NCBI GenBank assembly: GCA_903910645.1
Contig: CAIWAD010000113.1
Location: 45,564 to 109,563 of the forward strand
Length of the DNA stretch: 64,000 nt
Source of the DNA: an uncultured bacterium
Lineage (GTDB): Bacteria; CAIWAD01
Direction: 5' to 3'
The position numbers and the translations under genes are program-made. The notes beneath the pieces are model-generated. The model was not told the origin of the DNA, did no database searches, and worked only from the letters and a program-made list of their open reading frames with translations. Shown one piece after another: positions 151 to 59,114 of the stretch; the first letter of the stretch is position 1; every line of letters starts with the position of its first letter.

Positions 151-1610
151 GGCTGTGGCCCAAGGCCCCCGGCGGTCTGGCTGCGCGCTTCGGCAGCCTG
201 GCTGCGCGCTACGGCGGCTTGCTCCTGATCCTGCTTCTGCTGCAGGCCCTGCTGGCCGGCATCCTCGTCTCCTCCTGGATCAATGCGCGTGATCTTGTCC
301 TCCATCAGCAGGAATTGAAAGAGCAGGCCCGCCTCCTGTTGCCCGCCGTGGAGGACAGTTTGGCCCTGTGGGCGGGGGCCGGACCCATGATCAGCCGCAA
401 GGCCGAGTTGCGCCACCGCATGCAACTAAGCCTGGGGCGTCCTCAGGCCATGAGCCTGGTTTGGGTGGATCGCGGTGGCAATGTGGCGGCGGCCGGCTTT
501 CTAAGCACCGACAAACGACTGGCGCGGCTGAAGGGCTTGGCTCTGGACAGCGAGCGCCCAGAGGCGCTTGAGGCCTGGGCCGCAGAGGAACATCTGGCCC
601 TGGTGGCCCGCCGCACGCCCCAGGGCTGGCTGCTGCTGGCGGGATCGCGGGCCAACTCTCTGTGGAGCGTGGAAGGCCAGGGCCTGCTGGTGCTCATCCT
701 GTTGGCCAGCGCGGCCAGCGCCGGTGGGGCCGGATGGTTGCTGGCACGCCCCTTGTTGCGCCGCTTCAACCGCTTCCATGAGGCCTTTTCCCGCCTGGGC
801 GATGGACATATGGAAAGCCGCCTGGAGGACGCCCATCCGGATGAGCTGGGCCAATTGGGCCAGGAGTTCAATCGCATGGCCTCGCGGTTGCAGCAGCTCA
901 CCTTGCAACTGGAACGCAGTGACCGGGAGCGTCGCCAGCTTGTCAGCGAGGTCAGCCACGAGTTGGGCGCACCACTTACCACGGTGATTGGGCATTTGGA
1001 CATGCTGGAAAGGCGTCTGGATGACGCGGATAGCTTGCGCAGCCTGCGTCTGTGCCGCAGCCAGGCCCGACGCCTGGACACCCTGATCATGGATCTGCTG
1101 GACTTGGCCCGTCTGGATGATGCCGGTCTACGCCTGCGCCTTCATCCCTGTGATCTGCGCGAACTGGTGGATCAGGAAGTGGCGGCGGTGGAGCTGGCCT
1201 GCCTGGATCGGGATATCGACCTGTTCTGGCAACGCCCGGCGGACGCCATTCTTGTACAAGGGGATGAAGCCCGGCTTGCCCAGATCCTGCGTAATCTGCT
1301 GCGCAATGCCGTGACTCATTTGGGCATGCTTGCCTCAGGAAGCGCAAGACTGGAGGTCACCCTTCGGCAGGTGGAATCCATGGCCTGCGTGGTGGTGAAG
1401 GACAATGGCCCTGGCATGTCCACGGAGACCCTGGAGCGCCTTTTCGAGCGCTATTTCCGCCCCCACAGCGCCTTCAGCGAGGGTAGCGGTCTGGGCCTGT
1501 GCATCAGCCGCCGTCTGGCGGAGCTGCACAACGGCAGCCTGGAAGCCTCTTCCCCAGGCGAGGGCCAGGGCGCCAGCTTCACCCTGCTCCTCCCGCTTAC
1601 ATATCGGTAG
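147..1610 (+). CDS. Sensor histidine kinase (TM + HAMP + HisKA + HATPase_c)
   Basis: H-box SHELGAPLT, an N/G-box region (LRNLLRNAVTH...GSGLGL), N-terminal hydrophobic segments, and translational coupling to the upstream response regulator. Confidence 0.85.
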   Translation: MRLWPKAPGGLAARFGSLAARYGGLLLILLLLQALLAGILVSSWINARDLVLHQQELKEQARLLLPAVEDSLALWAGAGPMISRKAELRHRMQLSLGRPQAMSLVWVDRGGNVAAAGFLSTDKRLARLKGLALDSERPEALEAWAAEEHLALVARRTPQGWLLLAGSRANSLWSVEGQGLLVLILLASAASAGGAGWLLARPLLRRFNRFHEAFSRLGDGHMESRLEDAHPDELGQLGQEFNRMASRLQQLTLQLERSDRERRQLVSEVSHELGAPLTTVIGHLDMLERRLDDADSLRSLRLCRSQARRLDTLIMDLLDLARLDDAGLRLRLHPCDLRELVDQEVAAVELACLDRDIDLFWQRPADAILVQGDEARLAQILRNLLRNAVTHLGMLASGSARLEVTLRQVESMACVVVKDNGPGMSTETLERLFERYFRPHSAFSEGSGLGLCISRRLAELHNGSLEASSPGEGQGASFTLLLPLTYR

Positions 1611-1616
1611 CAAGCA

Positions 1617-1662
1617 GGTGCCAGGACGGTGCCAGGAGCGCTCCTGGCACCGTCCTGGCACC
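1617..1662. repeat. Perfect 46-bp palindrome (23-bp arms) containing two CCTGGCACC motifs per arm; REP-like extragenic palindrome between convergent genes
   Basis: GGTGCCAGGACGGTGCCAGGAGC|GCTCCTGGCACCGTCCTGGCACC read directly. The same 23-nt module recurs at 4513-4535. Confidence 0.6.
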
Positions 1663-1682
1663 GGATTCTCCCGGTGAAGGCG

Positions 1683-1731: not shown

Positions 1732-3075
1732 CTAATAGATGGCCAGGTAGCGGTCCAGCTCCCATTTGGAGACCTGAAGGCGATAAGCGTCCCACTCCTG
1801 GGTTTTGGCATTCAGGTAGGATTGGAAGAGCTCTTCGCCAAAAACCTGGCGCACCAATCGGCTCTTCTTGTACTCGCGAATGGCCTCTCCCAGCGAACCC
1901 GGCATGGACACCATGCGCTGGCGCCTGGCCTCGGAGACGTGGAAAAGATCCTCCTCCGCCGCCTTGGGCGCCTCCATCTTCCTCTTCACGCCATCCAGGC
2001 CGGCGGCCAGCATGACCGCGAAGGCCAGATAAGGATTGGAAGTGGGGTCCGGACAGCGCAGCTCGATGCGCGTGGCATTTTCGCGCCCGGGGCTGATGCG
2101 TGGCACGCGGATGAGGGCGCTGCGGTTGCTGGTGGCCCAGCTGATGTAAACCGGTGCTTCATAACCCGGCACCAGGCGCTTGTAGCTGTTCACCAGGGGA
2201 GCAATGACCGCGCTCATGCTGCGGGCGTGCGTCAGCTGTCCAGCGATGAAGTACTTGGCCAGATCGCTTAAACCGTGACTGTCCTTGCCGCCGTAGAAGG
2301 CGTTCTTGCCATCCTTCCACATGCTCTGGTTGGTGTGCATGCCGGAGCCGTTCTCACCAAAGATGGGCTTGGGCATGAAAGTGGCGTAAAGCCCGTACTT
2401 CTGGGCCACCGCCTTGATGGTAAGGCGCAGCGTGACGGCGTTGTCCGCCGTGGCCAAGGCCTTGTCGTACTTGAAGTTGATCTCATGCTGGCCAACGGCC
2501 ACTTCGTGGTGAAGGGCCTCAATCTCCAGGCCCATTTTGACCAGGTTGTCCACCATGTGGCGACGCACTGTGTGGGCCAGATCCGTGGACACATCGAAAT
2601 ACCCGGCCTGATCCTGCGGCACCAAAGGCAGCAGGCTACCGTCTGGATGGGGCTTGAACAGAAAGAACTCCAGCTCCGTGCCGGTGTAGTAGGTAAGACC
2701 CTGGGCATCCGCTTCCATAAGCTGGCGGCGCAACACGCGGCGGGGATCCCCTTCGAAGGGCGAACCGTCCGGGTGGAAGACATCGCAAATCACGCGGGCA
2801 GTGGGCACATCCTCATCCCAGGGGATTTGAATGAAAGTGGGCAGATCCGGCACCAGCAACATGTCGCTCTCGGCGATGCGGGCAAAGCCCTGGATGGAGC
2901 TGCCATCAAACCACTGGCCATGATCCAGCACATCCTGCCACATGGTAACAGGAATGCCCACGCTCTTGGCAATGCCATTGATGTCCGTGAACTGAAGGTT
3001 GATGAAACGAATGCCAGCCTTGCGGATGAGTTCGTCCACCCGCTCCACTTGGGCTTTGTCATGGGTGAGGGCCAT
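1732..3075 (-). CDS. glnA: Glutamine synthetase type I
   Basis: 448 aa with a GSGMH-like motif (NGSGMHTNQS) and full-length GS fold similarity. RBS GGGAGG 5 nt upstream of the ATG at 3075. Confidence 0.9.
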   Translation of the reverse strand: MALTHDKAQVERVDELIRKAGIRFINLQFTDINGIAKSVGIPVTMWQDVLDHGQWFDGSSIQGFARIAESDMLLVPDLPTFIQIPWDEDVPTARVICDVFHPDGSPFEGDPRRVLRRQLMEADAQGLTYYTGTELEFFLFKPHPDGSLLPLVPQDQAGYFDVSTDLAHTVRRHMVDNLVKMGLEIEALHHEVAVGQHEINFKYDKALATADNAVTLRLTIKAVAQKYGLYATFMPKPIFGENGSGMHTNQSMWKDGKNAFYGGKDSHGLSDLAKYFIAGQLTHARSMSAVIAPLVNSYKRLVPGYEAPVYISWATSNRSALIRVPRISPGRENATRIELRCPDPTSNPYLAFAVMLAAGLDGVKRKMEAPKAAEEDLFHVSEARRQRMVSMPGSLGEAIREYKKSRLVRQVFGEELFQSYLNAKTQEWDAYRLQVSKWELDRYLAIY

Positions 3076-4410: not shown

Positions 4411-4512
4411 ATGCGTTGCCCCAATGTGAACGAGCTGCGGCATGAACAAGAAGAATGCCGATGGTACCTGGGCAGTGTCTCCCTGCAATGCGGGCTGGGC
4501 ATTGTGATCTGA
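4411..4512 (+). CDS. Small ORF (33 aa) with three Cys and a strong RBS
   Basis: AAAGGAGG sits 7 nt upstream of the ATG. Peptide MRCPNVNELRHEQEECRWYLGSVSLQCGLGIVI ends right before the REP-like motif and a terminator. Confidence 0.25.
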   Translation: MRCPNVNELRHEQEECRWYLGSVSLQCGLGIVI

Positions 4513-4535
4513 CCTGGCACCAACCTGGCACCGGA
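4513..4535. repeat. Second copy of the CCTGGCACC-NN-CCTGGCACCGGA module (REP-like)
   Basis: CCTGGCACCAACCTGGCACCGGA, near-identical to 1643-1665. It lies in a convergent intergenic region adjacent to a terminator hairpin. Confidence 0.5.
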
Positions 4536-4546
4536 GCCAAAAAGAA

Positions 4547-4580
4547 AGAGGGCCGGCGATTGCCGGCCCTCTTCTTGTGG
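4547..4580. terminator. Bidirectional terminator hairpin
   Basis: AGAGGGCCGGC-GATT-GCCGGCCCTCT perfect 11-bp stem followed by TCTTGT. Confidence 0.65.
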
Positions 4581-4598: not shown

Positions 4599-6116
4599 CT
4601 ACTGGTTCAGGTAGTTCAGGGCGTTGGTCAGCAGGCTCTTGGCGTAAGCCGGGTTGTGCACACCCATGCTGCCGTCGTTCTTCACGAAGAGGTAGCAATA
4701 CACCGCTTCGCGCCAGGCCGTGTTGGTCCACTCCGGATGGAGGACGGCGCTGGTGAAAGTGGTGCTGGACAGGGAGTCCGTGGGCACCGTGAAGCCAAAC
4801 TGAGCCGTGAAGTAATCTTCAATCTGGCCCATGAGGTTCGCCACTTCCGTCTGGCCACCCACGCCGTTCACACCACCGAAGTCGATGTCGAAGCTGGTGG
4901 CACCATTATGGCAGCTCTGGCAAGCCGTCAGGCTGGCTTCGAAGCTGTGGTCATGAATGGTGTAGCCGTGCGGGGCGCTGGCTTCCATGTGACAGGTCAC
5001 ACAGGGATCCGGCACATTGTTGTGCATGGCCGTGCGGTTGTAGGTGAAGCCCGGGATTTCGTAGGAGCCGGCACCCAGGAACATGTCCATCTGGGGGGAC
5101 TCGTGCGGGCCGCGCAGCAGGCTGAACACGCCGCTGGCGTTGGAGAACACCTGGTCGTTCACATTGGTGAGCGTACGACGGGCGTGGTGGCACTGGGCGC
5201 ACAGCTGGCTGTTGGCACGACCGGTGAAGGTGGTGGCGGTGCCGCCGGCCGGAACATAGACCGTGCTGTAGTCGGCAACGGTGCGCAGCTGGGCTTCGTT
5301 GGTGCCATTGTGCGGGTCGTGGCAAGTGACGCAGCCAACCTGATTCAGGGTGGCGCCGCTCACAGGCGTGGTGCCCGTGTAGTCCGGATCGTAAGCAGCC
5401 AGGAAGCCCTGGGTACCGTGACAGGTCCAGCAGCTGCCACTGTTCCACTCAGCCGAGTAGTCTTCAATGGTCACGCCGGGATTCTTGCCCAGGTGGTCGT
5501 GGGCGCCGCCCAGCCACTCTTCCATCTGGCCTTCATGGCAGGTGGCGCAAGCCGCGTCGTCGCCTTCCGCCGGGTTGGTGGCGAAGGAGATCTCGGGGCT
5601 GTGACCGTACAGGTTCGGGCCCATGCTGCTATGGCAGGACTCGCACTGCACACCCTGCAGGGCATGCAGACGGGCGGTGTCCGCCTCGTCGGCGGCCGGC
5701 CAGAAGTCGTCATAGCCACCGTCGAACATGCCATGGTCCGTGATGGTGGTGTCGCCGTAGGCCACGGGGGCGTCCCAGCCCAGCGTATGGCACTGCAGAC
5801 AGTAGGGATTGTTGGACTGGCCAGCAGCCTCCAGGGTGGCGAAGGCATTGGGATGGCCCGTGCCCGTCCACTCCGTCACCGTCTCCGAGTGACAGGTGTA
5901 GCAGGAGCTTCCATTGTTACCAACCCAGGCCCAGGCGTAAAGATCTTCGCCGTCCTGTCCATTCTGACCGTCCTGACCGTCCTGACCGTCCGCACCAGTC
6001 GGTCCTGCAGGTCCAATGGGGCCAGCGGGACCAACAGCTCCATCCTCGCCGGCACAGCCAACCAGCATGATGCCGGTCAGAACCATTGCAGGCAGCGGTC
6101 GAAGCCACTTCTTCAT
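4599..6116 (-). CDS. Multiheme (9x CXXCH) c-type cytochrome lipoprotein with an N-terminal collagen-like Gly-X-Y stalk
   Basis: Signal peptide with lipobox-like LVGC, 10 consecutive GXY triplets (GPAGPIGPAGPTGADGQDGQDGQNGQDGED), and nine CXXCH motifs. RBS GGAGG 7 nt upstream of the ATG at 6116. Confidence 0.85.
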   Translation of the reverse strand: MKKWLRPLPAMVLTGIMLVGCAGEDGAVGPAGPIGPAGPTGADGQDGQDGQNGQDGEDLYAWAWVGNNGSSCYTCHSETVTEWTGTGHPNAFATLEAAGQSNNPYCLQCHTLGWDAPVAYGDTTITDHGMFDGGYDDFWPAADEADTARLHALQGVQCESCHSSMGPNLYGHSPEISFATNPAEGDDAACATCHEGQMEEWLGGAHDHLGKNPGVTIEDYSAEWNSGSCWTCHGTQGFLAAYDPDYTGTTPVSGATLNQVGCVTCHDPHNGTNEAQLRTVADYSTVYVPAGGTATTFTGRANSQLCAQCHHARRTLTNVNDQVFSNASGVFSLLRGPHESPQMDMFLGAGSYEIPGFTYNRTAMHNNVPDPCVTCHMEASAPHGYTIHDHSFEASLTACQSCHNGATSFDIDFGGVNGVGGQTEVANLMGQIEDYFTAQFGFTVPTDSLSSTTFTSAVLHPEWTNTAWREAVYCYLFVKNDGSMGVHNPAYAKSLLTNALNYLNQ

Positions 6117-6372
6117 GTCACACCTCCAATAAAAAATCGGGTAGCCTTTCCAGCGAACTCCCAAAATGTCGCGCCTTTGTCATCGGATGTCAACCAATCT
6201 GTCAACAATTTTACACTTTTTCACCTTTAATGATATGCTATTATCAATTAATGATCGCGTTGTAAATCAAGATGATAAGATGATTTCATACTATGAAAAT
6301 TCTCTATTCCGTTCATTCTGACTCGCTTTGATGTGCACTTCGGCACGAAACTGAAGCATTCCCATTACGAAA

Positions 6373-7852: not shown

Positions 7853-8449
7853 ATGCAGGCAGTTGACCGCTTCCTTCGCGTAGGTCTGCCGCTGACCGTC
7901 GTGAGCGTGCTCATCACGGTCATCCTGGTAGGCTGGAACACCCAACCGGACCGCTACCACATTGGTTATGCGCCGGAGCAGCCCATTCCCTACTCCCACA
8001 AGGTGCACGCCGGGGACAACCACATCCCTTGCGAGTACTGCCACACGGGAGCCCGCCAGGGACGACACGCCATGGTGCCGGCGGTGGAGGCCTGCTTCAA
8101 GTGCCACAACCTTACGCGCACGGACAGCCCGCACATCCAGCGCCTGAAGGCCGCCCTGGATGCCGGCCAGGCCTTCCCCTGGAAGCGCATCCACGACCTG
8201 CCCGACCATGTGTACTTCGACCATCGGCCCCATGTGGGCCTGGGCATCGCCTGCCAGGAATGCCACGGTCCAGTGGAGACCATGGAAGTGGTGGAGCAGG
8301 TGCTGAACATGCGCATGGGCGCCTGCCTTGAGTGCCATCGCGGCCAGCGCCAGTGGTCCACGCCCGTGCCCGCTCCCCGGGCGGACATGGTGCAGGTGGC
8401 TTCCGGCCACCCCACCGGCCCCACCAGTTGCAATGCCTGCCATCGTTGA
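7853..8449 (+). CDS. actA: Alternative Complex III pentaheme cytochrome c subunit
   Basis: N-terminal TM helix plus five CXXCH motifs (CEYCH, CFKCH, CQECH, CLECH, CNACH). First gene of the actABCDEF cluster. Confidence 0.85.
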   Translation: MQAVDRFLRVGLPLTVVSVLITVILVGWNTQPDRYHIGYAPEQPIPYSHKVHAGDNHIPCEYCHTGARQGRHAMVPAVEACFKCHNLTRTDSPHIQRLKAALDAGQAFPWKRIHDLPDHVYFDHRPHVGLGIACQECHGPVETMEVVEQVLNMRMGACLECHRGQRQWSTPVPAPRADMVQVASGHPTGPTSCNACHR

Positions 8450-8476
8450 CATGAACTTCCTGGAGGTTCCGTGCAG

Positions 8477-8674
8477 ATGACGCACACCACCCGGCGACAG
8501 GCCCTGGGAACCCTGGGAGGCCTGCTGGCCGCCCTGGCGCTCTTCCTGGTGCCCGGCTCCAGTGCCCTTGCGGCGCTGCGCAAGCCGGCCGCCACGCCGC
8601 GGACATCCGCTCCGGCCAAGGGCGAAGCGCCCGTGGTCCGGCCGCCCCAACATTCGGTGAGCCGCCATGGCTGA
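8477..8674 (+). CDS. Small (65 aa) putative Tat/Sec-signal protein between actA and actB
   Basis: GGAGG 9 nt upstream of the ATG at 8477. Sequence MTHTTRRQALGTLGGLLAALALFLVPGSSALAAL... has a twin-Arg motif plus a hydrophobic helix. Confidence 0.35.
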   Translation: MTHTTRRQALGTLGGLLAALALFLVPGSSALAALRKPAATPRTSAPAKGEAPVVRPPQHSVSRHG

Positions 8675-11600
8675 TCACACCCCTTCATCGCCGCGCTTCT
8701 GGCGCAGCCGGGCCGAGCAGGCCGCCGATCCCGCCTTCCAGGAACCGCTGCAGCGCGAGTTCGAGCCGAACAGCGCCCACCAGCCGGAAGATCCCGCCGC
8801 GGGCATGTCCCGCAGGCGCTTCCTGGGCTTGCTGGGAGCCTCCGCCGCCTTGGCGGCAGGGGCCGCTGGCTGTGGCCGAAACATCGACCGCGGAGACATT
8901 GTGCCCTACACGCGCCGCCCGGAGGATGGCCTTCCCGGGCGTGCCATGTGGTATGCCACCAGCAGCGCGGAAGCCTGCTGGGTCTTCCCCTTGCTGGTGA
9001 AGACCCGGGAATCGCGACCCATCCTCATTGAAGGCAATGACAGCCATCCCGACTCCCTGGGAGCCGCCCCCATGCGGGCCCAGGCGGAATTGCTGGGCCT
9101 TTACGATCCCGAGCGCCTGCAGGCACCGGCCAAGGCGGGGGCCACGGAGTCGTGGGACAACGCCCTGGCCGCCCTGGCGTCCGGAATGGGCAAAGGCAAG
9201 AGCCTTCTGCTCACGGGCGCCGTGGTGTCGCCATCCCGCCAGGCCCTGCTGGAGCGTTTGGCCCAGAGCTATCCCGGCGTGGAAATCCACTGTTGGGAAG
9301 CCGCCGCGCCCCATGGTGCCCTGGCCGCCAGCCAGCAATTGGGCGCCGGCCAGTTGCTGCCGCGCCTGAACCTGGAAAAGGCCCGGGTGGTGCTCAGCCT
9401 GGAAGCCGAGCTTTTCGCGGGTGAGGGAGATCTTCCCCGACAGATCCGCGCCTTTGCTGCCGCGCGTCGGCCGTTGACCCACGGGGAGGCCACGCCTGAA
9501 GGCATGAACCGCCTGTGGGCGGCGGAATCCCGCATGACTTTGACCGGCGGCAAGAGTGATCATCGCCTGGCCCTGCGCTCCAGCGCGCTGCCCGCCCTGG
9601 CTTTCGCCCTGGCCCGCCGACTGAACGAACTGGGGTTGGCCTGGCCCGGCGCGCCGTTGTCCGCGCCCTCCCTGGCGGAATTCGCCAAGGCGGAAGGCCT
9701 GGATGGCAAGCTGTTGGAGTTATTGGCCCAGGATCTGAAGCAGGCTGGCCCCGCCGCCGTGGTGGTGGCCGGCAACCAGGGCAGCGCCGCCCTTCATGGC
9801 GCGGCCTTGGTGCTGAACCGCATGCTGGGTGCCGAGGGCAATACCTTCAGCTGGCGTCCTGCCGCCTTGCGCCCCCTGGCCTCCCACGCGGAAATGTCCC
9901 AGCTGGGCAAGCGGCTCCAGGCGGGGGAATTCGCCACCGTGGTGCTGGCCGGCGTGAATCCTGTCTACGATGGCCCGGCGGGGCTGGATTGGGCCAAGGC
10001 CCTGTCCGGCGCGGGCGAGCGCTTCCACCTTGGCCTTTTGCCCGACGAGAGCGCCGCCGCCTGCACATGGTCCCTGCCCCTGAACCATTGGCTGGAATGC
10101 TGGGGCGACCACATGGGCGGCCTCCTGCAACAGCCTGTGGTGGCTCCCCTTTACGACACCCGCGCCCTGGACGAAATTCTGCTGAACCTGCTGGCCAAGG
10201 GTGGCCAAAGCGTTCCCGCGGATGGCTTGTCCTGGCTGAAGGGGCTCTGGCAGGCTGAGTACGCCCGCCAGGGCAGCCCGCTGGCTTTTGACGCCTTCTG
10301 GCATGCCTCGCTACAGCAGGGCTTCAGCGCCACGGCCTTCCCCGCTGCCCCCGCGCCTGTTCTTTCCGCTGGCGCCCTCACGGCCTGGTCCGCGCCCATG
10401 GCCGCCTCCAAGCTGGAATTGACGCTTCATGCGGACCGCCGCCTCTTCGATGGACGCGGCGCCAACATCGGCTGGCTGCAGGAGCTCCCGGATCCCGTGA
10501 CCAAGTGCACCTGGGGCAATCCTTTGTCAATTGCCCCGGCGGACGCCAAGGCCCAAAGTTTGAAGGACGGCGACCGCGTCATGTTGTCAAGCGGCGCCCA
10601 GTCGCTGGAGTGCACCGTGCTGGTGCAGCCCGGCCAGAAGGTTGGCACTTGCGCCCTGGCCCTGGGCCATGGACGCACGGCCTTGTCGGTGGCGGAAGGC
10701 ATCGGCGTGAACGCCTTCACCCTGATGCAGGGCGGCGCCACCTTGCTGCCCAATGTGAGCCTGGCCAAGGCCACCACCACCGCCATGACCCACACCACCC
10801 AGGAACACCAGCTGATGGAAGGCCGCGACATTGTGCGCAGCCTGCCGCTGGCCTCCTTTGCCGCCGGCGAGACCGGCGCACCTTCCCATGGCGCCCACGC
10901 GGGTGGCCAAAGTGAAGGGAAGGGTGCTGAGCATGGTGCCGCCGCCGCAGCCGCCCTGGCCACGGGTCGGGACCATGGATTGAAACAGAAGGAAGAGGCT
11001 CCCCTGACCCTGTACCCGGACCACGAGTACCTGGGCCACAAATGGGGCATGGCCATTGACCTTAGCGCCTGTGTGGGCTGCGCCGGTTGCGTTATTGCCT
11101 GCCAGGCGGAGAACAACATTCCCACTGTGGGCCCAGAGCGCGTGGACGAAGGCCGCGAAATGCACTGGATCCGCATCGACCGCTATTACGAGGGCGATGA
11201 GGAGAATCCGGACATGGTCTTCCAGCCCATGTTGTGCCAGCACTGCGACCACGCCCCCTGCGAGAATGTCTGCCCGGTGGCCGCCACCACGCACAACGAG
11301 GAAGGTCTGAACCAGATGACCTACAACCGTTGTGTGGGCACGCGCTACTGCGCCAACAACTGCCCCTACAAGGTGCGCCGCTTCAACTACTTCAGCTACA
11401 CGGGTGAACTGGCCGCCGTGCTGCAGCTGGCCGCCAATCCGGAAGTGAGTGTGCGTCCTCGTGGTGTCATGGAGAAGTGCACGTTCTGCGTGCAGCGCAT
11501 CAACGAGGCCAAGAATCAGGCCAAGGCCGAGGCGCGCCCGCTGGTGGATGGGGAAATCAAGCCCGCCTGCGCGGTGGCCTGCGCCGCCGGCGCCATCACT

Positions 11601-11753
11601 TTCGGCGATTTGAACGCCGACAGCGAGGTGGCGCGCCTGTCCCAGGCCGACCGTCGTTACAAAGTGCTGGAAGAACTGGGAGTGAGGCCCGCCGTGACCT
11701 ACCTGGCCGAACTGCGCAACCCCCTTGCCGCCGGAGGCGCCCATGAGTCATGA
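8667..11753 (+). CDS. actB: Alternative Complex III subunit B (molybdopterin-oxidoreductase-like domain + 4Fe-4S ferredoxin domain)
   Basis: Tat motif [22 protein letters not shown], a large MopB-like region, and a C-terminal Cys-cluster region ([42 protein letters not shown]). The start could alternatively be the ATG at 8805. Confidence 0.9.
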
Positions 11754-13125
11754 GGCCGTGCTGGCCGAGATCCGGCCCAAGCCCCTGGTGGTGGGGGAAG
11801 TCAGCCTGGGAGCCGTGGACGATGCCGTCTACGCCCCCATGGAATCCAAACCGCCCATGGTGTGGTGGGTGGCCCTGGCCTTCACCAGCGCCCTCATGCT
11901 CCTGGGCTTCGCCCTGATTGGCTACACGTTCTACGAAGGCATTGGCGTGTGGGGCAACAACGACCCGGTCTTTTGGGGCTGGGACATCACCAACTTCGTC
12001 TTCTGGGTGGGCATCGGCCACGCCGGAACCCTCATCAGCGCCGTGCTCTTCCTGTTCCGGCAGCGCTGGCGCAACGCCATTGCCCGCCTGGCGGAGGCCA
12101 TGACCATCTTCGCCGTGATGTGCGCGGCCATTTACCCCGCCATCCATGTGGGCAGGCCCTGGTTCGCCTTCTGGCTCTTCCCCTATCCCAACCAGCGCGG
12201 CATGTGGATCAATTTCAACAGCCCACTGGCCTGGGATGTCTTCGCGGTGAGCACCTACTTCACCGTCAGCCTCTTCTTCTGGTATGTGGGTCTTATCCCG
12301 GACCTGGCCAGCGCCCGGGACCGCGCCACGGGCAAGGTGCAGAAGGCCGTGTTCGGCGCCTTGAGCCTGGGCTGGCGCGGTGCCGCCCGGCACTGGACCC
12401 ACTATGAAAAGGCCTACATGATCCTGGCCGGCCTGGCCACGCCGCTGGTGCTCAGCGTGCACAGCATCGTGTCCTTCGACTTCGCCACCAGCGTCATCCC
12501 CGGCTGGCACACCACCATTTTCCCGCCTTACTTCGTGGCGGGCGCCGTGTTCAGCGGCTTCGCCATGGTGGTCACCGTGCTGGTCTTCGTGCGCAAGATC
12601 ATGCGCCTGGACCACCTCATCACCCTGGACCACATGGAAGTGATGAACAAGGTGATCCTTACCACGGGCTCCATTGTGGGTTACGCCTACGGCATGGAGT
12701 TCTTCATTGCCTGGTACGGCGGCGTGCCCGCCGAGCACTATGTCTTCATGAACCGCGCCACGGGCCCCTACGCCTGGGCCTACTGGACCATGGTCAGCTG
12801 CAACGTGATCTTCCCCCAGCTCTTCTGGTTCCGCAAGATCCGCCGCAGCATCGTGGCCATGTTCATCATTTCCATTTTTGTGAACATCGGCATGTGGTTC
12901 GAACGCTTCGTGATCATTGCCACCAGCCTGCACCGGGATTACCTGCCCAGCGCCTGGGGCTACTTCCGCCCCACACTGGTGGACATGGGCATCTTCGCCG
13001 GAACCTTCGGCCTTTTCTTCACCATGATCCTGCTCTTCAGCCGCACCCTGCCGGTGATTGCCACGGCGGAGCTGAAAGCGGTGCTTCCCGGCGCGCAGCC
13101 CGGCCATGGAGGTCATCATGAGTGA
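11743..13125 (+). CDS. actC: Alternative Complex III NrfD/PsrC-like membrane subunit
   Basis: Polytopic membrane protein of the NrfD family. GGAGG RBS, and it overlaps the actB stop. Confidence 0.9.
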
Positions 13126-14299
13126 TCGTCCCTTCCTGGTGCTGGGCCTGTTCCAGGACGCCGACAAGCTGGTCCACGGCATTCGTGCCCTGAAATCGAC
13201 CTACGGCGACAAGCTGGAAGCCTACACGCCCTATCCCATCCACGGGATCGAGAAGGAACTGGGCATTCCAAAATCCCATGTGGGGAAAATCGTCCTCGCC
13301 CTGGGATTGTCGGGCCTGACCCTGGCCCTGGGTTTCCAGAGCTGGGTGTTCACCACGGACTACCAGATCCAGTTCGGCGGCAAGCCCTACTTCAGTTGGG
13401 CCAGCTTCGTGCCCATTGTGTTTGAAGTGACCGTGCTGCTGGCCTGCATTGTGGGCGCCGTGTTCGGCATGCTGGTGTTGGTGAACAAGCTGCCGCACTA
13501 CTCGCACCCCATCCTGTCCAGCCGCAGCATGCCCAAGATCACGCGGGACCGCTTCGCCCTGGCGGTGAGCGTGGACACGGCGGAGGACGCCGCCCGCGCC
13601 GAGGCCGCCCTGCGCCAGGCCGGCGCGCCGGAAACAGAAGTGGTGCACGGCACGGACGAAATTGGATCCGGCCCCTTGCTGCCGCTGAAGCCCGTGCTGG
13701 CCACGGTGATCATCTGCGTGCTGGCGGGTCTGGGCACCTGGCACCTGCAGCGGTTATGGAACAAGCTGCCGCTCATCTCCATCATGGATGAGCAAACCAA
13801 GGTGCTGCCCTTCCGCGCCAACGCCTTCTACCCCGACGGCCAGTCCATGCGCCCGCTGGTGCCGGGCACCGTGTCGCGCAGCGCCGAGTACGCCGCCTGG
13901 ACCACGCCGGAGGAAGCCGGTCAAATGCTGGTCAACCCCCTGTCGGCGGACAGCCTGACTCTTGCCAAGGGTCGCCGGGGCTATGAAACCCATTGCCTGG
14001 TATGCCACGGCCAGTTGGGCGATGGCACGAAACTGCTGAGCGACAAATACACGGGCGCTCCCGCCAACCTGCACCAGGCACGCTTGAAGGAAGCCCCGGA
14101 CGGTCACCTGTTCGCGGTGGTCACCGCCGGCAAGAACACCATGGCCGGTTACGGCAAGGACATTCCCGCCGCCGACCGCTGGGCCATTGTGCACTATGTG
14201 CGCGTGCTGCAGCGGGCCCTGGACGCCAGCGACGCCGATGTCCAGGCGGCCCAGGCCGTGGCTGCGGCCGCGCCTGTTGCCCAGGGAGGAAGCCACTGA
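13118..14299 (+). CDS. actDE: Fused ActD (DUF3341 membrane subunit) and ActE (monoheme cytochrome c)
   Basis: N-terminal half is ActD-like ([25 protein letters not shown]...). C-terminal half carries the single CLVCHG heme motif typical of ActE. It is one continuous ORF. Confidence 0.8.
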
Positions 14300-15450
14300 T
14301 GGGCAAGACCATGCTACCCAAGTTGATGGCCGGTCTGGGCCTGCTGGGCGTGATTGGCGCCTGGTTTGCCGGGGATTCCGCCCGTTTCAGCGCCAACTGG
14401 TTCGTGTGGAGCATCCTGCTCCTGGCCGTGGCCCTGGGTTCCCTGTTCATCGTTGCGCTGGAGCACCTGACCCGCGCCCAGTGGAGCATTGTGTTGCGCC
14501 GCGTGCCGGAACGCCTGTCGGGCCTCCTGCCCGCTCTGGCCGTTGTATTTGCCATTGGCGCGGCCCTGGGCCTTGCCGGGAATTTCGGTTGGTCCACCCC
14601 GGCCTTCCGTGAAGCCCTGGCCACAGAGCCCCACCTGCATGGCAAGGCCATCTGGTACAGCTCGCCCTTCTTCATTGGCCGTCTGGTCTTCATTTTTGCC
14701 GTGTGGCTCATGAGCTGGAAGCTCCTGGCCGGTGGCAGCATGAAGCAGGATGAGACGAAAGATCCGCGCTTCAGTCTTTTCGCCAAGCGCTTCAGTGCGC
14801 CTTTCATGTGGCTCTTCGCCATTAGCGTCACGGTGTTGACGGTGGACTGGCTCATGGGCATGAGCCCGCGCTGGTTCAGCACCATCTTCGGCGTCTACGG
14901 CTTCTCGGGCATCTTTCTGAGCGGTCTGGCGGCCACGGTGCTGGGCATCCTGCACCTGAAGAAGCAAGGCCGCCTCCAGGAAGTGCGTCCGGACCACTTG
15001 TACAGCCTGGGCGGGTTCCTGTTCGCCTTTACGGTGTTCTGGGCTTACATCGCTTTCAGCCAGTTCATGCTCATCTGGTACGCCAACCTGCCGGAAGAGA
15101 CCTTCTGGTTCCACACCCGCCTGACGGGTGGCTGGTACCCGGTCACCTTCATCCTGCCCATCCTGCGCTTCATCGTGCCCTTCTTCGCCCTGCTTTCGCG
15201 GGAAGTGAAGATGGATGCCCGTCGCCTGTCCCTCGTGGCGGTGCTGGTGCTGGTGGGCCAGGCCCTGGACCTGTACTGGCTGATTGTCCCGGAACTGGGT
15301 CGTGGCGTGCTCTTCGGCTGGCAGGAAGTGGCCTTCGGCCTCTTCTTCACGGGCCTGGGACTTAGCCTGGCGGAAGCCCGCATGAATGTGGGCAAGGACC
15401 TGCCGGAAGGCGACCCCAATCTGGACGCCAGTCTTCATTATCACCTGTAG
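14299..15450 (+). CDS. actF: Alternative Complex III second NrfD-like membrane subunit
   Basis: Polytopic membrane protein paralogous to ActC. GGAGGA RBS, and TGATG overlap with actDE. Confidence 0.85.
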   Translation: MGKTMLPKLMAGLGLLGVIGAWFAGDSARFSANWFVWSILLLAVALGSLFIVALEHLTRAQWSIVLRRVPERLSGLLPALAVVFAIGAALGLAGNFGWSTPAFREALATEPHLHGKAIWYSSPFFIGRLVFIFAVWLMSWKLLAGGSMKQDETKDPRFSLFAKRFSAPFMWLFAISVTVLTVDWLMGMSPRWFSTIFGVYGFSGIFLSGLAATVLGILHLKKQGRLQEVRPDHLYSLGGFLFAFTVFWAYIAFSQFMLIWYANLPEETFWFHTRLTGGWYPVTFILPILRFIVPFFALLSREVKMDARRLSLVAVLVLVGQALDLYWLIVPELGRGVLFGWQEVAFGLFFTGLGLSLAEARMNVGKDLPEGDPNLDASLHYHL

Positions 15451-15459
15451 GAAGCAGTC

Positions 15460-16335
15460 ATGGCGCAACCTGAACGCAACAGCATTCTCCCCACCCTGGC
15501 CTGGAGCCTGGCCATCCTCTTGGCCATGGGCATCTTCTTCGGCCTGCTGGTGGGTCCGGCCCTGACAAAGGGCGGCGCGGGCACGGCCCACGGCTATCTG
15601 CCTCCCCAGGCGCCCACGGACCTGACGGAGTTCGATGCGGTGAAGGGCCGTCAGGCGCCGGGCATCAACCTGGGTCAGGCCGTGGCGGGTGATCCTGCAC
15701 TGAAGACCTGGGCCAAGGATGAATACGGCAAGATCTGCGTGGCCTGCCATGGACCCGCGGGCAAGGGCGATGGCCCCGCCGGTCTGGCCCTGCAGGCGCG
15801 CAACTTCACGCTGAACGAGGCCTGGAAGAACGGGCCCAAGCTCACGCAGATCTTCCAGACGCTGAGCAAGGGTTTGCCGCCCAAGATGCCCGCCTACGAC
15901 ACCTACACCCCGGCCCAGCGGCTGGCGCTGGCCCATGTGGTGCAGGGCTTCATGGCCTTCCCCAAGCCGGCGGCCAGCGCGGCGGAGGTGGCGGCCATGG
16001 ACGCGGAATTCAGTCTCAGCGCAGGCGTGCGGGATCCCGGACGCGTAAGCGTAAGTGTGGCCGCCCAGCGCGTGGCCCAGGAAAGTCAGGCCACAAGCTT
16101 GAATGTGGAGGCCCTGCCAGCCGATCTGCGCCATCTGGTGCGTCATGCGGCCAAGGCCGGCCAGACCCTGGTGGGCCTGAAGGGCTTGAGCGGCGCCAAT
16201 TGGACGGCGGCCCTGCATGCGGGAGCACCGGCCAACGGCTTCTCTCCGGCGGTGGGGGCTCTGGGCGGCGCCGATTGGCAGCGTTTGAACGCGGCCCTGG
16301 CGGTGGCCACCCAGGCCGGCACCAGCACCAACTAG
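15460..16335 (+). CDS. Membrane-anchored class I monoheme cytochrome c
   Basis: N-terminal TM helix and one CVACHG motif. Sits between the ACIII and oxidase modules, so it is the likely electron carrier. Confidence 0.7.
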   Translation: MAQPERNSILPTLAWSLAILLAMGIFFGLLVGPALTKGGAGTAHGYLPPQAPTDLTEFDAVKGRQAPGINLGQAVAGDPALKTWAKDEYGKICVACHGPAGKGDGPAGLALQARNFTLNEAWKNGPKLTQIFQTLSKGLPPKMPAYDTYTPAQRLALAHVVQGFMAFPKPAASAAEVAAMDAEFSLSAGVRDPGRVSVSVAAQRVAQESQATSLNVEALPADLRHLVRHAAKAGQTLVGLKGLSGANWTAALHAGAPANGFSPAVGALGGADWQRLNAALAVATQAGTSTN

Positions 16336-16342
16336 GCAGCTC

Positions 16343-16376
16343 AGGCGGCTGCGGTCCTGGACCCGGCCGCCTTTTT
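16343..16376 (+). terminator. Hairpin with a T-run between the cytochrome c gene and sco1 (possible partial terminator/attenuator)
   Basis: AGGCGGC...GCCGCCT followed by TTTT. The loop is long (16 nt), so confidence is low. Confidence 0.3.
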
Positions 16377-16436
16377 CCTGCCTCGCAAGTTCGTCTGGAC
16401 TAAGTTTGTTGATTGAATAACAAGTCAGGAGAACCC

Positions 16437-17306
16437 ATGGCCCCTTCCCCCCCTTTCCGACGATGGGTGCCCATCGTCCTGTTGGTGGCCAGCCTTGCCG
16501 CCTTCCCAGCCCGGGCCGCGCAGCCCGCGGCGGAGGAGGACAAGGCCGGCGTGTTTTTCGATGAGCATCTGGGACAGGTCCTGCCCGGCGATGTGTTGCT
16601 GCGCGACGAAGCGGGCAATCCCGTGCGGCTGGACTCCCTGGTGGACAAGCCCACCATCTTGAACTTCGTCTACTTCGATTGCCCCGGCGTGTGCACGCCC
16701 CTGCTGAACGAAGTGGCGGACATCCTGGGCAAGACGGACCTGGATCCGCGCAAGGAGCCCTTCCAGATCCTGACGGTGAGTTTCGAGCCCCGGGACACGC
16801 CGGAGGTGGCGTCCGAGAAGCGCGCCAATTATCTGGCCATGCTCAGCCGCCCCCTGCCCCAGGAGAGCTGGCGCTTCCTGACCGGCGACGCGGAACCGCT
16901 GGCGCGCCTCACCAAGGCCGCGGGCTTTTCCTACAAGAAGGCCGGCTTTGAATATGTGCATCCCGGCGGGCTCATCCTGCTGGCGCCAGACCGCACCATT
17001 GTGCGCTATCTCTACGGCACCAAGTTCCTGCCCTTCGATTTCAAGATGGGCATCGCCGAAGCCGCAAAGGGACATGTGCTTCCCACCACGGCACGCCTGC
17101 TCACCATCTGCTTCAGCTACGACCCCGAGGGCCGCACCTATGTCTTCAACACCATGCGCGTGGTGGGCAGCAGCATGCTGCTGACGGTGGGCCTCTTCGC
17201 CGGCTTCCTGGCGGTCACCCAGAAGCGCGGCAGCCGTGGCCTGGGCCGCAAAGCCCGCCAGGACAACACAGCAACCACCAGCACCCAGAATCGGGAGGAC
17301 GCATGA
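16437..17306 (+). CDS. SCO1/SenC copper chaperone (thioredoxin-like)
   Basis: CPGVC motif (FDCPGVCTPLLNEV), an N-terminal signal/anchor, and AGGAGA RBS. Confidence 0.85.
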   Translation: MAPSPPFRRWVPIVLLVASLAAFPARAAQPAAEEDKAGVFFDEHLGQVLPGDVLLRDEAGNPVRLDSLVDKPTILNFVYFDCPGVCTPLLNEVADILGKTDLDPRKEPFQILTVSFEPRDTPEVASEKRANYLAMLSRPLPQESWRFLTGDAEPLARLTKAAGFSYKKAGFEYVHPGGLILLAPDRTIVRYLYGTKFLPFDFKMGIAEAAKGHVLPTTARLLTICFSYDPEGRTYVFNTMRVVGSSMLLTVGLFAGFLAVTQKRGSRGLGRKARQDNTATTSTQNREDA

Positions 17307-18931
17307 CGGACAAGGCCAGCGGAGCCACCCCTCCGCGCGGATTTTACGGGCCGGAAGGCGGCGGGGGAGGTCTCCTCTCCTGGGTCTTCTCCACGGACCA
17401 CAAGCGCGTGGGTCTGCTCTACCTCTACTCGCTCCTGAGCTTCTTCGCCATCGGGGCCATCCTGGGCCTTACCATGCGCGCGGAGCTCCTGATGCCCGGC
17501 CAGCAATTGGTCAGTCCCCGGGTTTACAACAGTCTCTTCACCCTGCACGGCGTGATCATGATCTTCCTGTTCATTGTGCCGGGCATTCCCGCCATCATGG
17601 GCAACTTCATGCTGCCCTTGCAGATTGGCGCGGAGGATGTGGCCTTTCCCCGCCTGAATCTGGCCAGCTGGTGGGTGTACATGGTGGGCGCCTTCCTGGC
17701 CGTCACCAGCCTGTTCAGCGGCGGCGGCGCTCCGGACACGGGCTGGACCTTTTACGCGCCTTATTCCATCCGCACCAACTCCAATGTGAGCCTGGCCGTG
17801 CTGGCGGCCTTCATCCTGGGCTTCAGCAGCGTGCTCACGGGCATCAACTTCATCACCACCATCCACCGCATGCGGGCCAAGGGCATGGGATTCTTCCGCA
17901 TGCCGCTCTTCGTGTGGAGCCTTTACGCCACCAGCTGGATCCAGGTCATCGCCACACCGGTGGTGGGCATCACTCTGGTCCTGGTGGTGCTGGAGCGATT
18001 GCTGGGCATTGGCTTCTTTGATCCGGCGGCAGGCGGTGATCCCATCCTCTACCAGCACCTTTTCTGGATTTACAGCCATCCCGCCGTGTACATCATGATC
18101 CTCCCCGCCATGGGTGTCATCAGCGAAATCCTGCCCACTTTTTCCCGGCGCACCATTTTCGGCTACAAGGCCATCGCCATGAGCAGCATGGCCATTGCTG
18201 GCGTGGGCTACCTGGTGTGGGGGCATCACATGTTCACCACGGGCATGAGCGACACCAGCCGCGTGGTGTTCAGCCTCATGACCTTCCTTGTGGCCATCCC
18301 CACAGGCATCAAGATTTTCAACTGGGTGGCCACGCTCTACAGGGGCAGCATCAGTCTTGAAAGCCCCATGCTTTACGCCATGGCCTTCATCTTCCTGTTC
18401 AGCATCGGCGGCCTGACGGGTCTGGTGAACGGCGCCCTGTCCACGGACATCCATGTGCACGACACCTACTTCGTGGTGGGCCACTTCCACTATGTGATGT
18501 TCGGCGGCACGGGCATTGCCCTGTTCGCCGCCCTCCACTATTGGCTGCCCAAGATCAGCGGCCGCATGGTGAATGAGAAGAAAGCCAAGCGCGCCTTCTG
18601 GCTGGTGGTCATTGGCTTCAACCTGCTCTACTTCCCCATGCTGGTGCTGGGCATCATGGGCATGCCGCGCCGTTACCACGATTACCTGCCCATTTTCCAA
18701 ACGCCGCATGTGATCAGCACCATCGGCTCCTGGGTCATTGCCACGGGTCTTGTGCTCATGTTCTGGAATCTGTGGAGCAGCGCCCGCCGGGGCGCCCTGG
18801 CGGGGAACAACCCCTGGGGAGGCACAACGCTGGAATGGCAGACCACCAGCCCGCCGCCCACGCTGAACTTCGACGCCCCCGTCACGGTGACGGCCGGCCC
18901 CTACGAGCGCGGTGAAGGGAGAACGGCATGA
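17303..18931 (+). CDS. ctaD: Cytochrome c oxidase subunit I
   Basis: 12-TM heme-copper oxidase subunit I with conserved His ligands (e.g. GHFHYV, HHMF). ATGA overlap with sco1. Confidence 0.95.
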   Translation: MTDKASGATPPRGFYGPEGGGGGLLSWVFSTDHKRVGLLYLYSLLSFFAIGAILGLTMRAELLMPGQQLVSPRVYNSLFTLHGVIMIFLFIVPGIPAIMGNFMLPLQIGAEDVAFPRLNLASWWVYMVGAFLAVTSLFSGGGAPDTGWTFYAPYSIRTNSNVSLAVLAAFILGFSSVLTGINFITTIHRMRAKGMGFFRMPLFVWSLYATSWIQVIATPVVGITLVLVVLERLLGIGFFDPAAGGDPILYQHLFWIYSHPAVYIMILPAMGVISEILPTFSRRTIFGYKAIAMSSMAIAGVGYLVWGHHMFTTGMSDTSRVVFSLMTFLVAIPTGIKIFNWVATLYRGSISLESPMLYAMAFIFLFSIGGLTGLVNGALSTDIHVHDTYFVVGHFHYVMFGGTGIALFAALHYWLPKISGRMVNEKKAKRAFWLVVIGFNLLYFPMLVLGIMGMPRRYHDYLPIFQTPHVISTIGSWVIATGLVLMFWNLWSSARRGALAGNNPWGGTTLEWQTTSPPPTLNFDAPVTVTAGPYERGEGRTA

Positions 18932-23344: not shown

Positions 23345-24313
23345 TTACTTGCTCAACATGAGCTTCTGCGCCTGCTGGCGCCCCGCCGCCTCCAGCACCG
23401 CGATGTACACGCCGCTGGACCACTGGCTGCCATCCACCTGCACCTCGTGGGTGCCGGCTTCCACCAAACCCGTCACCAGGGTGGCCTGCAAGGCGCCCTT
23501 CAGGTCGTAGACCTTCAGGCTGGCCTCGCCCAGCTCATCCATGCTGTAGCGCAGCGTGCAGGAGGGGTTGAAGGGATTCGGGTAGGGATTGGACAGGGCG
23601 AAGGTGGTGGCCAGCTCGCCAGCGTCCACCATGTCGTTCACCTGGCAGATCACCGTGCCGTGGGAGCTGACGATGGAGCACTGGGTCTGGCCGCTGTGAT
23701 CGCCTTCAAAGGTCACCGTCACCGTGACGCTCTCGCCCTGGGCCAGTTCATAGCTCGCGGGGCTGACGCTGAAGGTGCCGCACTCTTCGCTGATGGTGCC
23801 GGCAAGGCTCGTGGGGCAGGTGCCGGTGGAGGTGTTGTGGATGGTGAAGCTGCGCGTCACGGGCCCCATCAGGTTCACCGTGCCGAAGTCCAGCAGCTCC
23901 GCATCCAGGGCCGTGCTTTCCACACAGGCGGGAGGCAGCACAACGACGGGTCCAAGCACGGTGGCGGCGTTGCCGTAGGCATCCAGGGCCGCCACGCGCA
24001 AGGTGTAAAGACCGGTCTCCCCTTCCGTCCAGCTCACCGCGTCCGAGAAAGCGAAGGCCGTGCCCAACACAATCTCATCCACGCTATCGTCCAGCGCCCA
24101 CACGGCACGCACGGCGCCGGGATGTGCATCCGCCGCCACCCAAGAGGCGGACAACAGGGCCGGGGTGTGTCCCAGGGTGGGGAAATCCACGCTGGTGAAT
24201 GTGGGCGGGGTTGTGTCCAGGACGCCCAGGGCACTGGTGCCGGACACCACTGCGGCGAACACCGCGGGGCCTACAGCCAGGCCTGCGCACAGAGCAAGCA
24301 GTCGACGCTTCAT
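23345..24313 (-). CDS. Secreted protein with a T9SS (Por) C-terminal sorting domain
   Basis: Signal peptide, and a C-terminal ~80 aa ending ...SNPYPNPFNPSCTLRYSM...KVYDLKGALQATL...GVYIAVLEA... typical of the T9SS CTD. It sits just upstream of the FGE-family gene in the same orientation. Confidence 0.7.
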   Translation of the reverse strand: MKRRLLALCAGLAVGPAVFAAVVSGTSALGVLDTTPPTFTSVDFPTLGHTPALLSASWVAADAHPGAVRAVWALDDSVDEIVLGTAFAFSDAVSWTEGETGLYTLRVAALDAYGNAATVLGPVVVLPPACVESTALDAELLDFGTVNLMGPVTRSFTIHNTSTGTCPTSLAGTISEECGTFSVSPASYELAQGESVTVTVTFEGDHSGQTQCSIVSSHGTVICQVNDMVDAGELATTFALSNPYPNPFNPSCTLRYSMDELGEASLKVYDLKGALQATLVTGLVEAGTHEVQVDGSQWSSGVYIAVLEAAGRQQAQKLMLSK

Positions 24314-24460
24314 GCCGATTCTCCTTCAAACGATGTTGTGCTTCACGGCCAAGGGCACCCGGCCGTTGGGGGGTCAACAGAGGCCTGGCCGATGACGACA
24401 CTCATCGTCACTTCACAAGTTCAGATTGAGGGGTTCTCGGCTTCAGGGCGCGAAAAGGAG

Positions 24461-24477
24461 TTGCAAGAGTTGTGCCA
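24461..24477 (-). promoter_or_regulatory. Sigma54 (-24/-12) promoter, exact consensus, oriented toward the T9SS-cargo/FGE operon
   Basis: Minus-strand reading TGGCAC-AACTC-TTGCA. It lies ~150 nt upstream of the ATG at 24313. Confidence 0.5.
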
Positions 24478-24757
24478 TTCCTGGCATGGCCACATCAACC
24501 GTTGTGCATCAACAGCTTTCTCTCGAAGTTCTATTCACTTTTAGTTCAAATTCAATGTGCTGATGTTCGTTTTCCGGCACACCTGTCGGATTTGAAACAC
24601 TTTGGGTGGCCGCACTCCATGGTGTCGGCAGCTTTCCCGTCCCAAGCCCTGTCATCCCAGTGAAAGCAGGGATCTCCATTTCAAGCTGTCCTCTTGTTAT
24701 GACAATACAATGGCTTGGGCCGCTGATTGTCAGTGGAGCAGCTTTGAGCTGATGACA

Positions 24758-25060
24758 CACCGCACCGGCACCACACCGGCACCGCACCGGCACCACACCG
24801 GCACCACACCGGCACCACACCGGCACCGCACCGGCACCACACCGGCACCACACCGGCACCGCACCGGCACCGCACCGGCACCACACCGGCACCGCACCGG
24901 CACCGCACCGGCACCGCACCGGCACCACACCGGCACCGCACCGGCACCACACTGGCACCACACCGGCACCGCACCGGCACCACACCGGCACCGCACCGGC
25001 ACCACACTGGCACCACACCGGCACCGCACCGGCACCACACCGGCACCACACCGGCACCAC
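24758..25060. repeat. Tandem repeat of a 12-bp unit CACCGGCACC(A/G)C, ~25 copies (two CACTGGCACCAC variants)
   Basis: Read directly from the sequence. It lies in the divergent intergenic region between the 24313(-) and 25147(+) genes. The ORFs spanning it on both strands are periodic artefacts. Confidence 0.85.
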
Positions 25061-25146
25061 GCTTCCATGAGAGGTCCTTTGTGGGAGGGAGTATCCATCC
25101 GCTGCAGGCTTGGTATCTTGCAACCTGTCAAGCCGGAGATTCCCCC

Positions 25147-59076: not shown

Positions 59077-59114
59077 GACCCGGATTCCAGGGGTGGGATC
59101 CGGGTCGTTTTTTT
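59077..59114 (+). terminator. Second plus-oriented terminator hairpin about 300 nt downstream of the first
   Basis: GACCCGGAT-(12 nt)-ATCCGGGTC followed by GTTTTTTT. Confidence 0.55.

Follow-up and report, generated by a model that had tools for sequence, protein, structure and literature searches.

What is a perfect palindrome, each of whose arms resembles a sigma-54 promoter, doing between the 3' ends of two convergent genes? The question arises from a 64,000-nt stretch of DNA from an uncultured bacterium, the window, to which all coordinates below refer unless stated otherwise. The initial annotation offered three readings of the palindrome, namely a species-specific element of the REP type, a decoy site for sigma-54 or a regulator, and an RNA-stabilizing hairpin. 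As to the organism, a GlnA protein of the same 90% cluster as the one encoded here carries the NCBI name Candidatus Delongbacteria bacterium, and a T9SS sorting domain in the window fits placement in the FCB group.

The setting that had been described for the palindrome, between a kinase stop codon and a bidirectional terminator at convergent gene ends, is borne out by our gene calls and folds. Upstream lies the gene for a HAMP/HisKA/HATPase sensor histidine kinase, which stops with TAG at 1608-1610 and is itself directly preceded by an OmpR-family regulator gene. On the other side, glnA (glutamine synthetase; minus strand, 1732-3075) converges on the kinase gene with its 3' end at 1732, and the spacer between the two genes is 121 bp in the window. 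In this spacer and at its edge lie the following features:

1606-1616, minus strand: a degenerate third left-arm unit, CTTGCTACC.., which covers part of the kinase stop codon
1617-1662, no strand assigned: copy 1, a perfect 46-bp palindrome with arms of two 11-bp units each
1617-1636: left arm of copy 1, GGTGCCAGGACGGTGCCAGG, made of two inverted units, GGTGCCAGGAC and GGTGCCAGG
1637-1642: centre of copy 1, AGCGCT, 6 bp and itself palindromic
1643-1662: right arm of copy 1, CCTGGCACCGTCCTGGCACC, made of two direct units, CCTGGCACCGT and CCTGGCACC
1683-1708, no strand assigned: an intrinsic-terminator-like bidirectional hairpin, AAAA GGGGGCAC GA GTGCCCCC TTTT, seen in folds

The last of these, an A4-stem-T4 hairpin, is common to the kinase operon and glnA and is a neighbour of the repeat rather than part of it; it appears in the folds, yet is absent from the consensus terminator scan list. 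Its stem (1687-1704) contains the GGCAC/GTGCC words of the repeat units, possibly by coincidence. Other convergent spacers of the window have plain intrinsic terminators without repeat units. To the left of the window, one assembly (L001, its own positions 13687-17860) holds small ORFs with PqqD-like, ATP-grasp and Orn/DAP decarboxylase genes near the two-component system, a cluster that looks like a peptide-modification (RiPP-like) locus.

The palindrome is indeed perfect over 46 bp, as first described, and ends at 1662; the earlier end at 1665 had included a trailing GGA. Its hairpin is predicted at -47.9 kcal/mol as RNA (z = -10.6) and at -29.4 kcal/mol as DNA, and it is still predicted when the whole kinase 3' UTR is folded. 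Because its sequence is identical across four independent metagenome assemblies (L001-L003 and L129), the palindrome is real and no assembly artefact. Nor are its units a product of base composition in the window: the dimer pattern, with up to 3 mismatches, gives 8 matches against 0.34 expected, a number reached by none of 100 shuffles, and the third left-arm unit of copy 1 is picked up in the same scan as a match at 1606-1625 with 3 mismatches. The 9-mer of the repeat occurs seven times in 64 kb (2.3 expected), six of these inside copies 1 and 2.

Some readings of the hairpin could be set aside early. Copy 1 is ruled out as an intrinsic terminator, since the bases that follow directly 3' of the palindrome, GGAUUCUCCCGG, contain no U tract. 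A CsrA sponge, to which CAGGACG in the left-arm units might point, was discarded: its GGA lies in the spacer, the variable part of the repeat, and is missing from copy 2 and from two loci described below (L159 and L017). A search of the whole window with Rfam 15 returned zero matches at the gathering threshold and only sub-threshold generic hairpin matches at a permissive one.

The palindrome does not stand alone. GGCACC at 11-bp spacing recurs in the window only at copy 1, at the shorter copy 2 and at a third locus that the initial annotation had missed, a long array. The features concerned are these:

4513-4534, plus strand: copy 2, a direct dimer, CCTGGCACCAA CCTGGCACCGG, immediately 3' of the TGA of a 33-aa ORF
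4545-4574, no strand assigned: a bidirectional intrinsic terminator 3' of copy 2, from terminator scan and fold
24758-25060, plus strand: a tandem array of 27.5 units of CCGGCACCRCA, from Tandem Repeats Finder

Copy 2 had been taken for a second palindrome (4513-4532). In the window it is a direct dimer for which folding predicts no hairpin. The terminator behind it is common to the convergent gene of a multihaem cytochrome (4599-6164, minus strand). The 33-aa ORF before it (4411-4512, plus strand; MRCPNVNELRHEQEECRWYLGSVSLQCGLGIVI) is Cys-rich and preceded by a strong AAGGAGG ribosome-binding site; several assemblies have it annotated as a gene, and it is found only in this species, together with copy 2. 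Further along, the window carries an alternative complex III-type cluster at 7853-14299 (a multihaem cytochrome, a 1028-aa molybdopterin/Fe-S subunit, NrfD and ActD), close to a rubrerythrin gene and a multihaem cytochrome with collagen repeats.

The long array is non-coding and, like copy 2, gives no hairpin on folding. Its setting is a divergent spacer of 833 bp. On one flank, 87 nt beyond the array, is the ATG (25147) of a 180-aa gene of unknown function; the gene on the opposite flank of the spacer encodes a T9SS-tailed protein and has a perfect sigma-54 promoter. Two of the array's units read CTGGCACC, and CGGCAC takes the place of TGGCAC in 25 of the 27 full units. A peptide repeat was rejected: there is no in-frame start before 25081, and a contig without the array encodes an identical 180-aa product. 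A CRISPR array, with repeats of 23-50 bp and unique spacers of similar length, is ruled out as well, since the units are 11 bp long and contiguous, without spacers between them.

What the three loci have in common is a YGGCACC core, an 11-bp period and an intergenic position, and the spacers between the cores differ from one locus to the next. One short unit at several separate non-coding loci of one lineage is the hallmark of dispersed short tandem repeats (STRR-like). The family is defined here by three loci in about 80 kb of this species; a metagenome scan for the 23-mer CCTGGCACCNNCCTGGCACCGGA found nine loci, of which the sole one from this species is the copy 1 locus.

Comparison of close strains reveals how unstable these loci are. 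At copy 1, one metagenome contig (L154, JGI 3300044629) has a left arm of nine units (GGTGCCAGG plus TC or AC), against two in the window, followed by AGCGCT-CCTGGC and then the end of the contig, and a second (L155, JGI 3300044615) ends four and a half units into the same expanded arm; the kinase gene of each is 96.7% identical to that of the window. In another JGI contig the spacer between glnA and the kinase gene is 198 bp rather than 121 bp, a difference of 7 x 11. The long array has 18.5 units in one strain (L134), against 27.5 in the window (99 bp fewer), between flanks that are 99.7% identical; two other contigs (L135 and L136) stop within the array, and a scaffold (L161) has an N-gap there. 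At the start of copy 2, exactly, two scaffolds (L001 and L003) have gaps of 100 N. Two contigs (L157 and L158) have copy 2 as it stands in the window, and a further one (L159), with flanks 99.7% identical to the window, reads TGA-TCT-GGTGCCAGGTC-GGTGCCAGGT up to its end. The units of this last contig are inverted after the same TGA, so inverted units exist at the copy 2 locus in some strains.

Unit number therefore differs between close strains, as in a VNTR, with flanks that are 96.7-99.7% identical. Because all three loci are variable, the palindrome of two plus two units in the window is one allele. Larger changes occur in the same place: in L133/L160 the long array is missing and unrelated DNA with PFOR and CBS genes is joined to the last unit, at window position 25053. 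There (2600-3000 of a 130-kb contig) PFOR, DHODH, Usp and CBS genes replace the region of the T9SS protein (window 24314-25146), and the breakpoint in the last repeat unit could reflect either a rearrangement at the array or a chimeric join.

How old, then, is the repeat at these sites? We compared the corresponding syntenic regions in two related Delongbacteria (L130/L131 and L132), whose GlnA falls in the same 90% cluster. In both, gene order is unchanged and each convergent junction still has its terminator hairpin, with the position of the 4545-4574 terminator preserved; at these loci neither has the palindrome, the dimer or the 33-aa ORF. At the syntenic locus one (L130) has only a degenerate CCAGCACCTGCGCCTGCACCCC and the other (L132) an A+T-rich spacer of 225 bp; no 11-bp GGCACC repeat was found in 21 kb of these relatives.

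Similar words do turn up in distant genomes. A dimer scan with CCTGGCACCNNCCTGGCACC across one genome per GTDB species gave at least 117 loci, where about 17 would be expected with equiprobable bases. This species is absent among the matches listed, and the conserved core of the matches is uninformative on selection because the search itself fixed the core. Phylum labels here are those of the records, and some of the MAG names look unreliable. A crude gene caller based on GC3 places at least 77 of 135 match clusters, among those listed, between genes (27 in convergent, 33 in tandem and 17 in divergent spacers). In viral contigs the real dimer has one match and two shuffled dimers have nine and seven, so that the real one is rarer than its controls and there is no enrichment in viruses. 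Across 126 loci, a search for a recurrent neighbour (transposase, RAYT or regulator) returned clusters of generic ABC ATPases and aldehyde dehydrogenases only.

The architectures in these other genomes are varied. One MAG that also encodes a T9SS-tailed protein carries GGTGCCAGGGTGGTGCCAGG-GTCGAC-CCTGGCACCACCCTGGCACC (L017), the same arrangement of two plus two units with another spacer and another centre; this palindrome fills a convergent spacer of 57 bp in which there is no other terminator. A second locus of this MAG (L041) consists of 2.5 direct units, with a signal-peptide gene about 55 nt downstream. Among the matches listed, many copies come from freshwater Planctomycetota/Phycisphaerales MAGs, and records under the names Streptomyces, Ectothiorhodospiraceae and Acetofilamentum contribute plain tandem arrays. 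In the Planctomycetota MAG samp_4449_semibin_254 the words belong to MITE-like elements of about 205-230 bp (L033 1186-1413 and L022 4716-4920) with terminal inverted repeats of 58-61 nt made of 11-bp GGTGCCWGGCACC-type words; such elements are found on many contigs of several Phycisphaerales/Planctomycetota MAGs, often right 3' of stop codons. The Actinomycetes MAG MFD06085.bin.2.163 (L107 2990-3200 and L086 5886-6040) has a 28-bp quasi-palindrome, CCGGTGCCTGGCACCTGCCTGGCACCGG, repeated every 47-80 bp with short variable spacers, a layout like that of BIME clusters with spacers too short for CRISPR.

Full-text literature searches with the sequence words of the repeat returned primer lists only, and searches for 11-bp tandem repeats returned nothing relevant. 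We regard the three loci as a family whose sequence is new but whose kind is known, that of short tandem repeats which are extragenic, dispersed and hypervariable, here in an uncultured phylum; several known systems help to place it. REP and BIME elements are imperfect extragenic palindromes of about 20-40 nt, typically found after stop codons in tens to hundreds per genome, with a conserved GTAG/GTGG head and a cognate RAYT (Y1 transposase). Copy 1 resembles those of Enterobacteria and Pseudomonas as an extragenic palindrome 6 nt after a stop codon, between convergent genes, with a hairpin in the 3' UTR, and also in the alternating orientation of its units and their strain-variable number at a locus. 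It departs from them in that the palindrome is perfect and built of 11-bp tandem subunits, in that direct-only alleles exist and in that three loci were seen in about 80 kb. The only GTAG near copy 1 (GGTAGC, 1607-1612) is the kinase stop codon, and no transposase is among the genes annotated around the loci. The REP-type reading of the initial annotation accordingly holds in part: the element is extragenic, palindromic, repeated in the genome and lineage-specific, but its unit number varies and it is not a fixed palindrome.

The cyanobacterial STRR, which are short tandem repeats, are described as capable of folding into intergenic hairpins and possibly of stabilizing transcripts (PMC2670836). 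Like them, the present family has a short unit that is amplified at dispersed non-coding loci, is lineage-specific and in its palindromic alleles can fold into a hairpin between genes; it differs in its 11-bp rather than 7-bp unit, in its host, Candidatus Delongbacteria, and in its inverted arrays with a defined 6-bp centre. The variable unit number of an intergenic tandem repeat (two against nine units, 27.5 against 18.5) is shared with minisatellites of the MIRU-VNTR kind, whose units are 40-100 bp long and often contain small ORFs, whereas here an 11-bp core recurs at several loci and also inverted. A 9-10-nt word in inverted pairs 3' of genes recalls the DUS of Neisseria and the USS of Haemophilus, which serve as terminators in that form; those words occur about once per kb and also inside genes, in contrast to seven occurrences of the 9-mer in 64 kb here.

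Taken together, we consider it probable, with moderate confidence, that the three loci belong to a lineage-specific, slippage-prone family of 11-bp repeats whose palindromic alleles play a hairpin role in 3' UTRs similar to that of REP, BIME or STRR elements. The unit of the family would be the YGGCACC core plus a variable spacer of 4 nt, set out in dispersed tandem repeats. At the copy 1 locus, an array of inverted units, (GGTGCCAGGNN)n, would face an array of direct units, (NNCCTGGCACC)m, across the palindromic 6-bp centre. That arrays expand and contract in 11-bp steps is apparent from the copy-number changes between strains, for which slippage during replication or unequal recombination, promoted by hairpins, is the most likely cause. 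The transcript of the kinase operon should cross the element before it reaches the terminator, so in the allele with two plus two units the kinase 3' UTR would contain a G+C-rich hairpin of 21 bp, separated from the stop codon by 6 nt and from the terminator by about 20 nt. There, judging from the fold and from better-known elements, it would most likely act as a barrier to 3'-to-5' exonucleases and as an additional block to read-through between the convergent genes.

Such an effect would be limited to some alleles. The RNA-hairpin role that had been proposed is plausible for palindromic alleles, given the folding energy of copy 1, and does not extend to copy 2 or the long array, which form no hairpin in the window; because these two cannot fold, the family is not accounted for by a hairpin function. 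Taken as a whole, it fits a simple repeat that propagates itself and evolves fast better than it fits a conserved regulatory site.

From here it is a short step to a repeat that does nothing at all, a neutral or selfish simple sequence in which the hairpin is an accidental inverted duplication, tolerated in a 3' spacer. We hold this to be rather unlikely. The relatives lack the repeat at the same loci with gene order and terminators unchanged, and unit number, even the presence of an arm, varies between strains whose flanks are 96.7-99.7% identical. Direct-only alleles have no hairpin, which means that the family as a whole may be neutral, and a canonical terminator already stands 3' of copy 1, which would make an extra hairpin dispensable. 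Against neutrality, the 9-nt core recurs at separate loci with different spacers, the palindrome of the other T9SS-bearing MAG is the only hairpin in its 57-bp convergent spacer, and about 57% of the dimer matches listed in other genomes are intergenic, a share that fits purifying selection against insertions in coding sequence but also a role at 3' ends. A common core with different spacers at three loci could also reflect selection for a protein-binding word. The hairpin could, alternatively, be what is left of a mobile element, either a remnant of a MITE or transposon or its solo ends, in which terminal inverted repeats consisting of 11-bp subrepeats were later amplified by slippage. The MITE pattern fits the Planctomycetota elements, with their long terminal inverted repeats of the same words (GGTGCCTGGCACCTGCCTGGCACC...), but the window offers no internal sequence, target-site duplication or nearby transposase, and no neighbouring protein family recurs at the matches. 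The order of the arms, with GGTGCCAGG first and then CCTGGCACC, is reversed in L033 and shared by L022, the two Planctomycetota elements compared. Copy 1 as a MITE was rejected, its arms being only 6 bp apart and its flanks not duplicated, and we think a derivation from mobile-element ends improbable.

It remains to ask what the likeness to sigma-54 promoters means. The count of 10 of 11 consensus positions (TGGCAC-CGTCC-TGGCA) was correct, and the view that the arms are unlikely to be promoters is borne out by the arms of copy 1 pointing into gene 3' ends. The units read TGGCAC-N5-TGGCA, with TGGCAC at -24, GC at -12 and the correct GG-N10-GC spacing in each adjacent pair, in an organism that uses sigma-54: it has a gene for a GAFTGA activator (53309-54832, minus strand; the motif around 54163), and canonical TGGCAC-N5-TTGC promoters stand in the window at 24477 (minus strand), 56593 (plus strand) and 58872 (plus strand). 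These points favour a reading of the repeats as arrays of sigma-54 (RpoN) binding sites, on which closed complexes would act as a decoy, as a roadblock or as outward promoters for antisense or short RNAs, and so does the orientation of the long array and of the units near the signal-peptide gene (L041), which are co-oriented with the downstream gene 55-90 nt upstream of its ATG. The -12 element, however, is TGGCA and not TTGCW, with the T at -14 replaced by G, and the units score 10 of 12, the same as several intragenic chance sites, as against 11 of 12 for the true promoters of the window. CGGCAC and CGGCA stand in 25 of the 27 full units of the long array. Neither copy 1, in either arm, nor copy 2 stands in front of a gene read in its direction: each faces a terminator at a distance of 20-25 nt, beyond which the neighbouring gene lies in antisense. 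The units are absent from the orthologous loci and unconstrained in number, and comparable arrays with an 11-bp period are present in records carrying the labels Streptomyces and Actinomycetes, a phylum that is not known to have rpoN. Sigma-54 arrays are in our estimation scarcely probable, and the decoy proposed in the initial annotation finds no support either: its units are no better than random intragenic sites, have CGGCAC in the long array and are absent in relatives. The likeness is probably incidental, following, on the evidence of the sequence, from an 11-bp period around GGCAC; we call it a by-product because of the chance-level score, the orientation at gene ends, the absence at orthologous loci and the unconstrained unit number.

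The same register could suit another DNA-binding protein, of an OmpR/PhoB-like type, with phased cores on one face of the helix. The strict 11-bp register, the conserved core with a variable spacer of 2-4 nt at three loci and the OmpR-family regulator gene directly upstream of the kinase gene all speak for it. The relatives, however, keep the two-component system and have no repeat, the repeats lie at 3' ends rather than in the operon promoter, across genomes no candidate protein accompanies the repeats, and copy number varies freely; of the explanations weighed here we give this one the least credence. A broader form, in which YGGCACC arrays bind sigma-54 holoenzyme or some other factor and their copy number tunes titration, roadblocking or insulation, seems to us scarcely more than a long shot, on a par with the sigma-54 arrays. 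If it were true, the occurrence of the word in MAGs labelled Planctomycetota, Actinomycetes, Gammaproteobacteria and Chloroflexota-like would reflect a shared binding partner, not coincidence, and gene ends with binding arrays of variable length would make a novel regulatory device, of which the present data give no sign.

Two of the canonical promoters merit a mention in their own right. The perfect one on the minus strand (24462-24477, TGGCAC-AACTC-TTGCA) lies about 280 bp from the start of the long array and about 150 nt upstream of the gene for the T9SS-tailed protein, which is Ig-like (23345-24313, minus strand). The one at 58872 on the plus strand (TGGCACAGCACTTGCA) lies in a spacer between two terminators, with a strong intrinsic terminator (59090-59120) about 200 nt 3' of it, no ORF in between and no Rfam match; going by this arrangement, 58872-59120 looks like a candidate sigma-54-dependent small RNA on the plus strand.

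Overall, the lineage-specific, slippage-prone repeat that we favour has several practical consequences. Scans for sigma-54 promoters should be expected to return false positives wherever 11-bp repeats of the TGGCACC type occur. The repeats explain why assemblies of this organism break at the three loci, and the same loci are VNTR markers, changing in 11-bp steps, with which strains can be told apart in metagenomes. Finally, the analysis supplies a first account of a repeat family in Candidatus Delongbacteria, which as a phylum is known solely through metagenomes.
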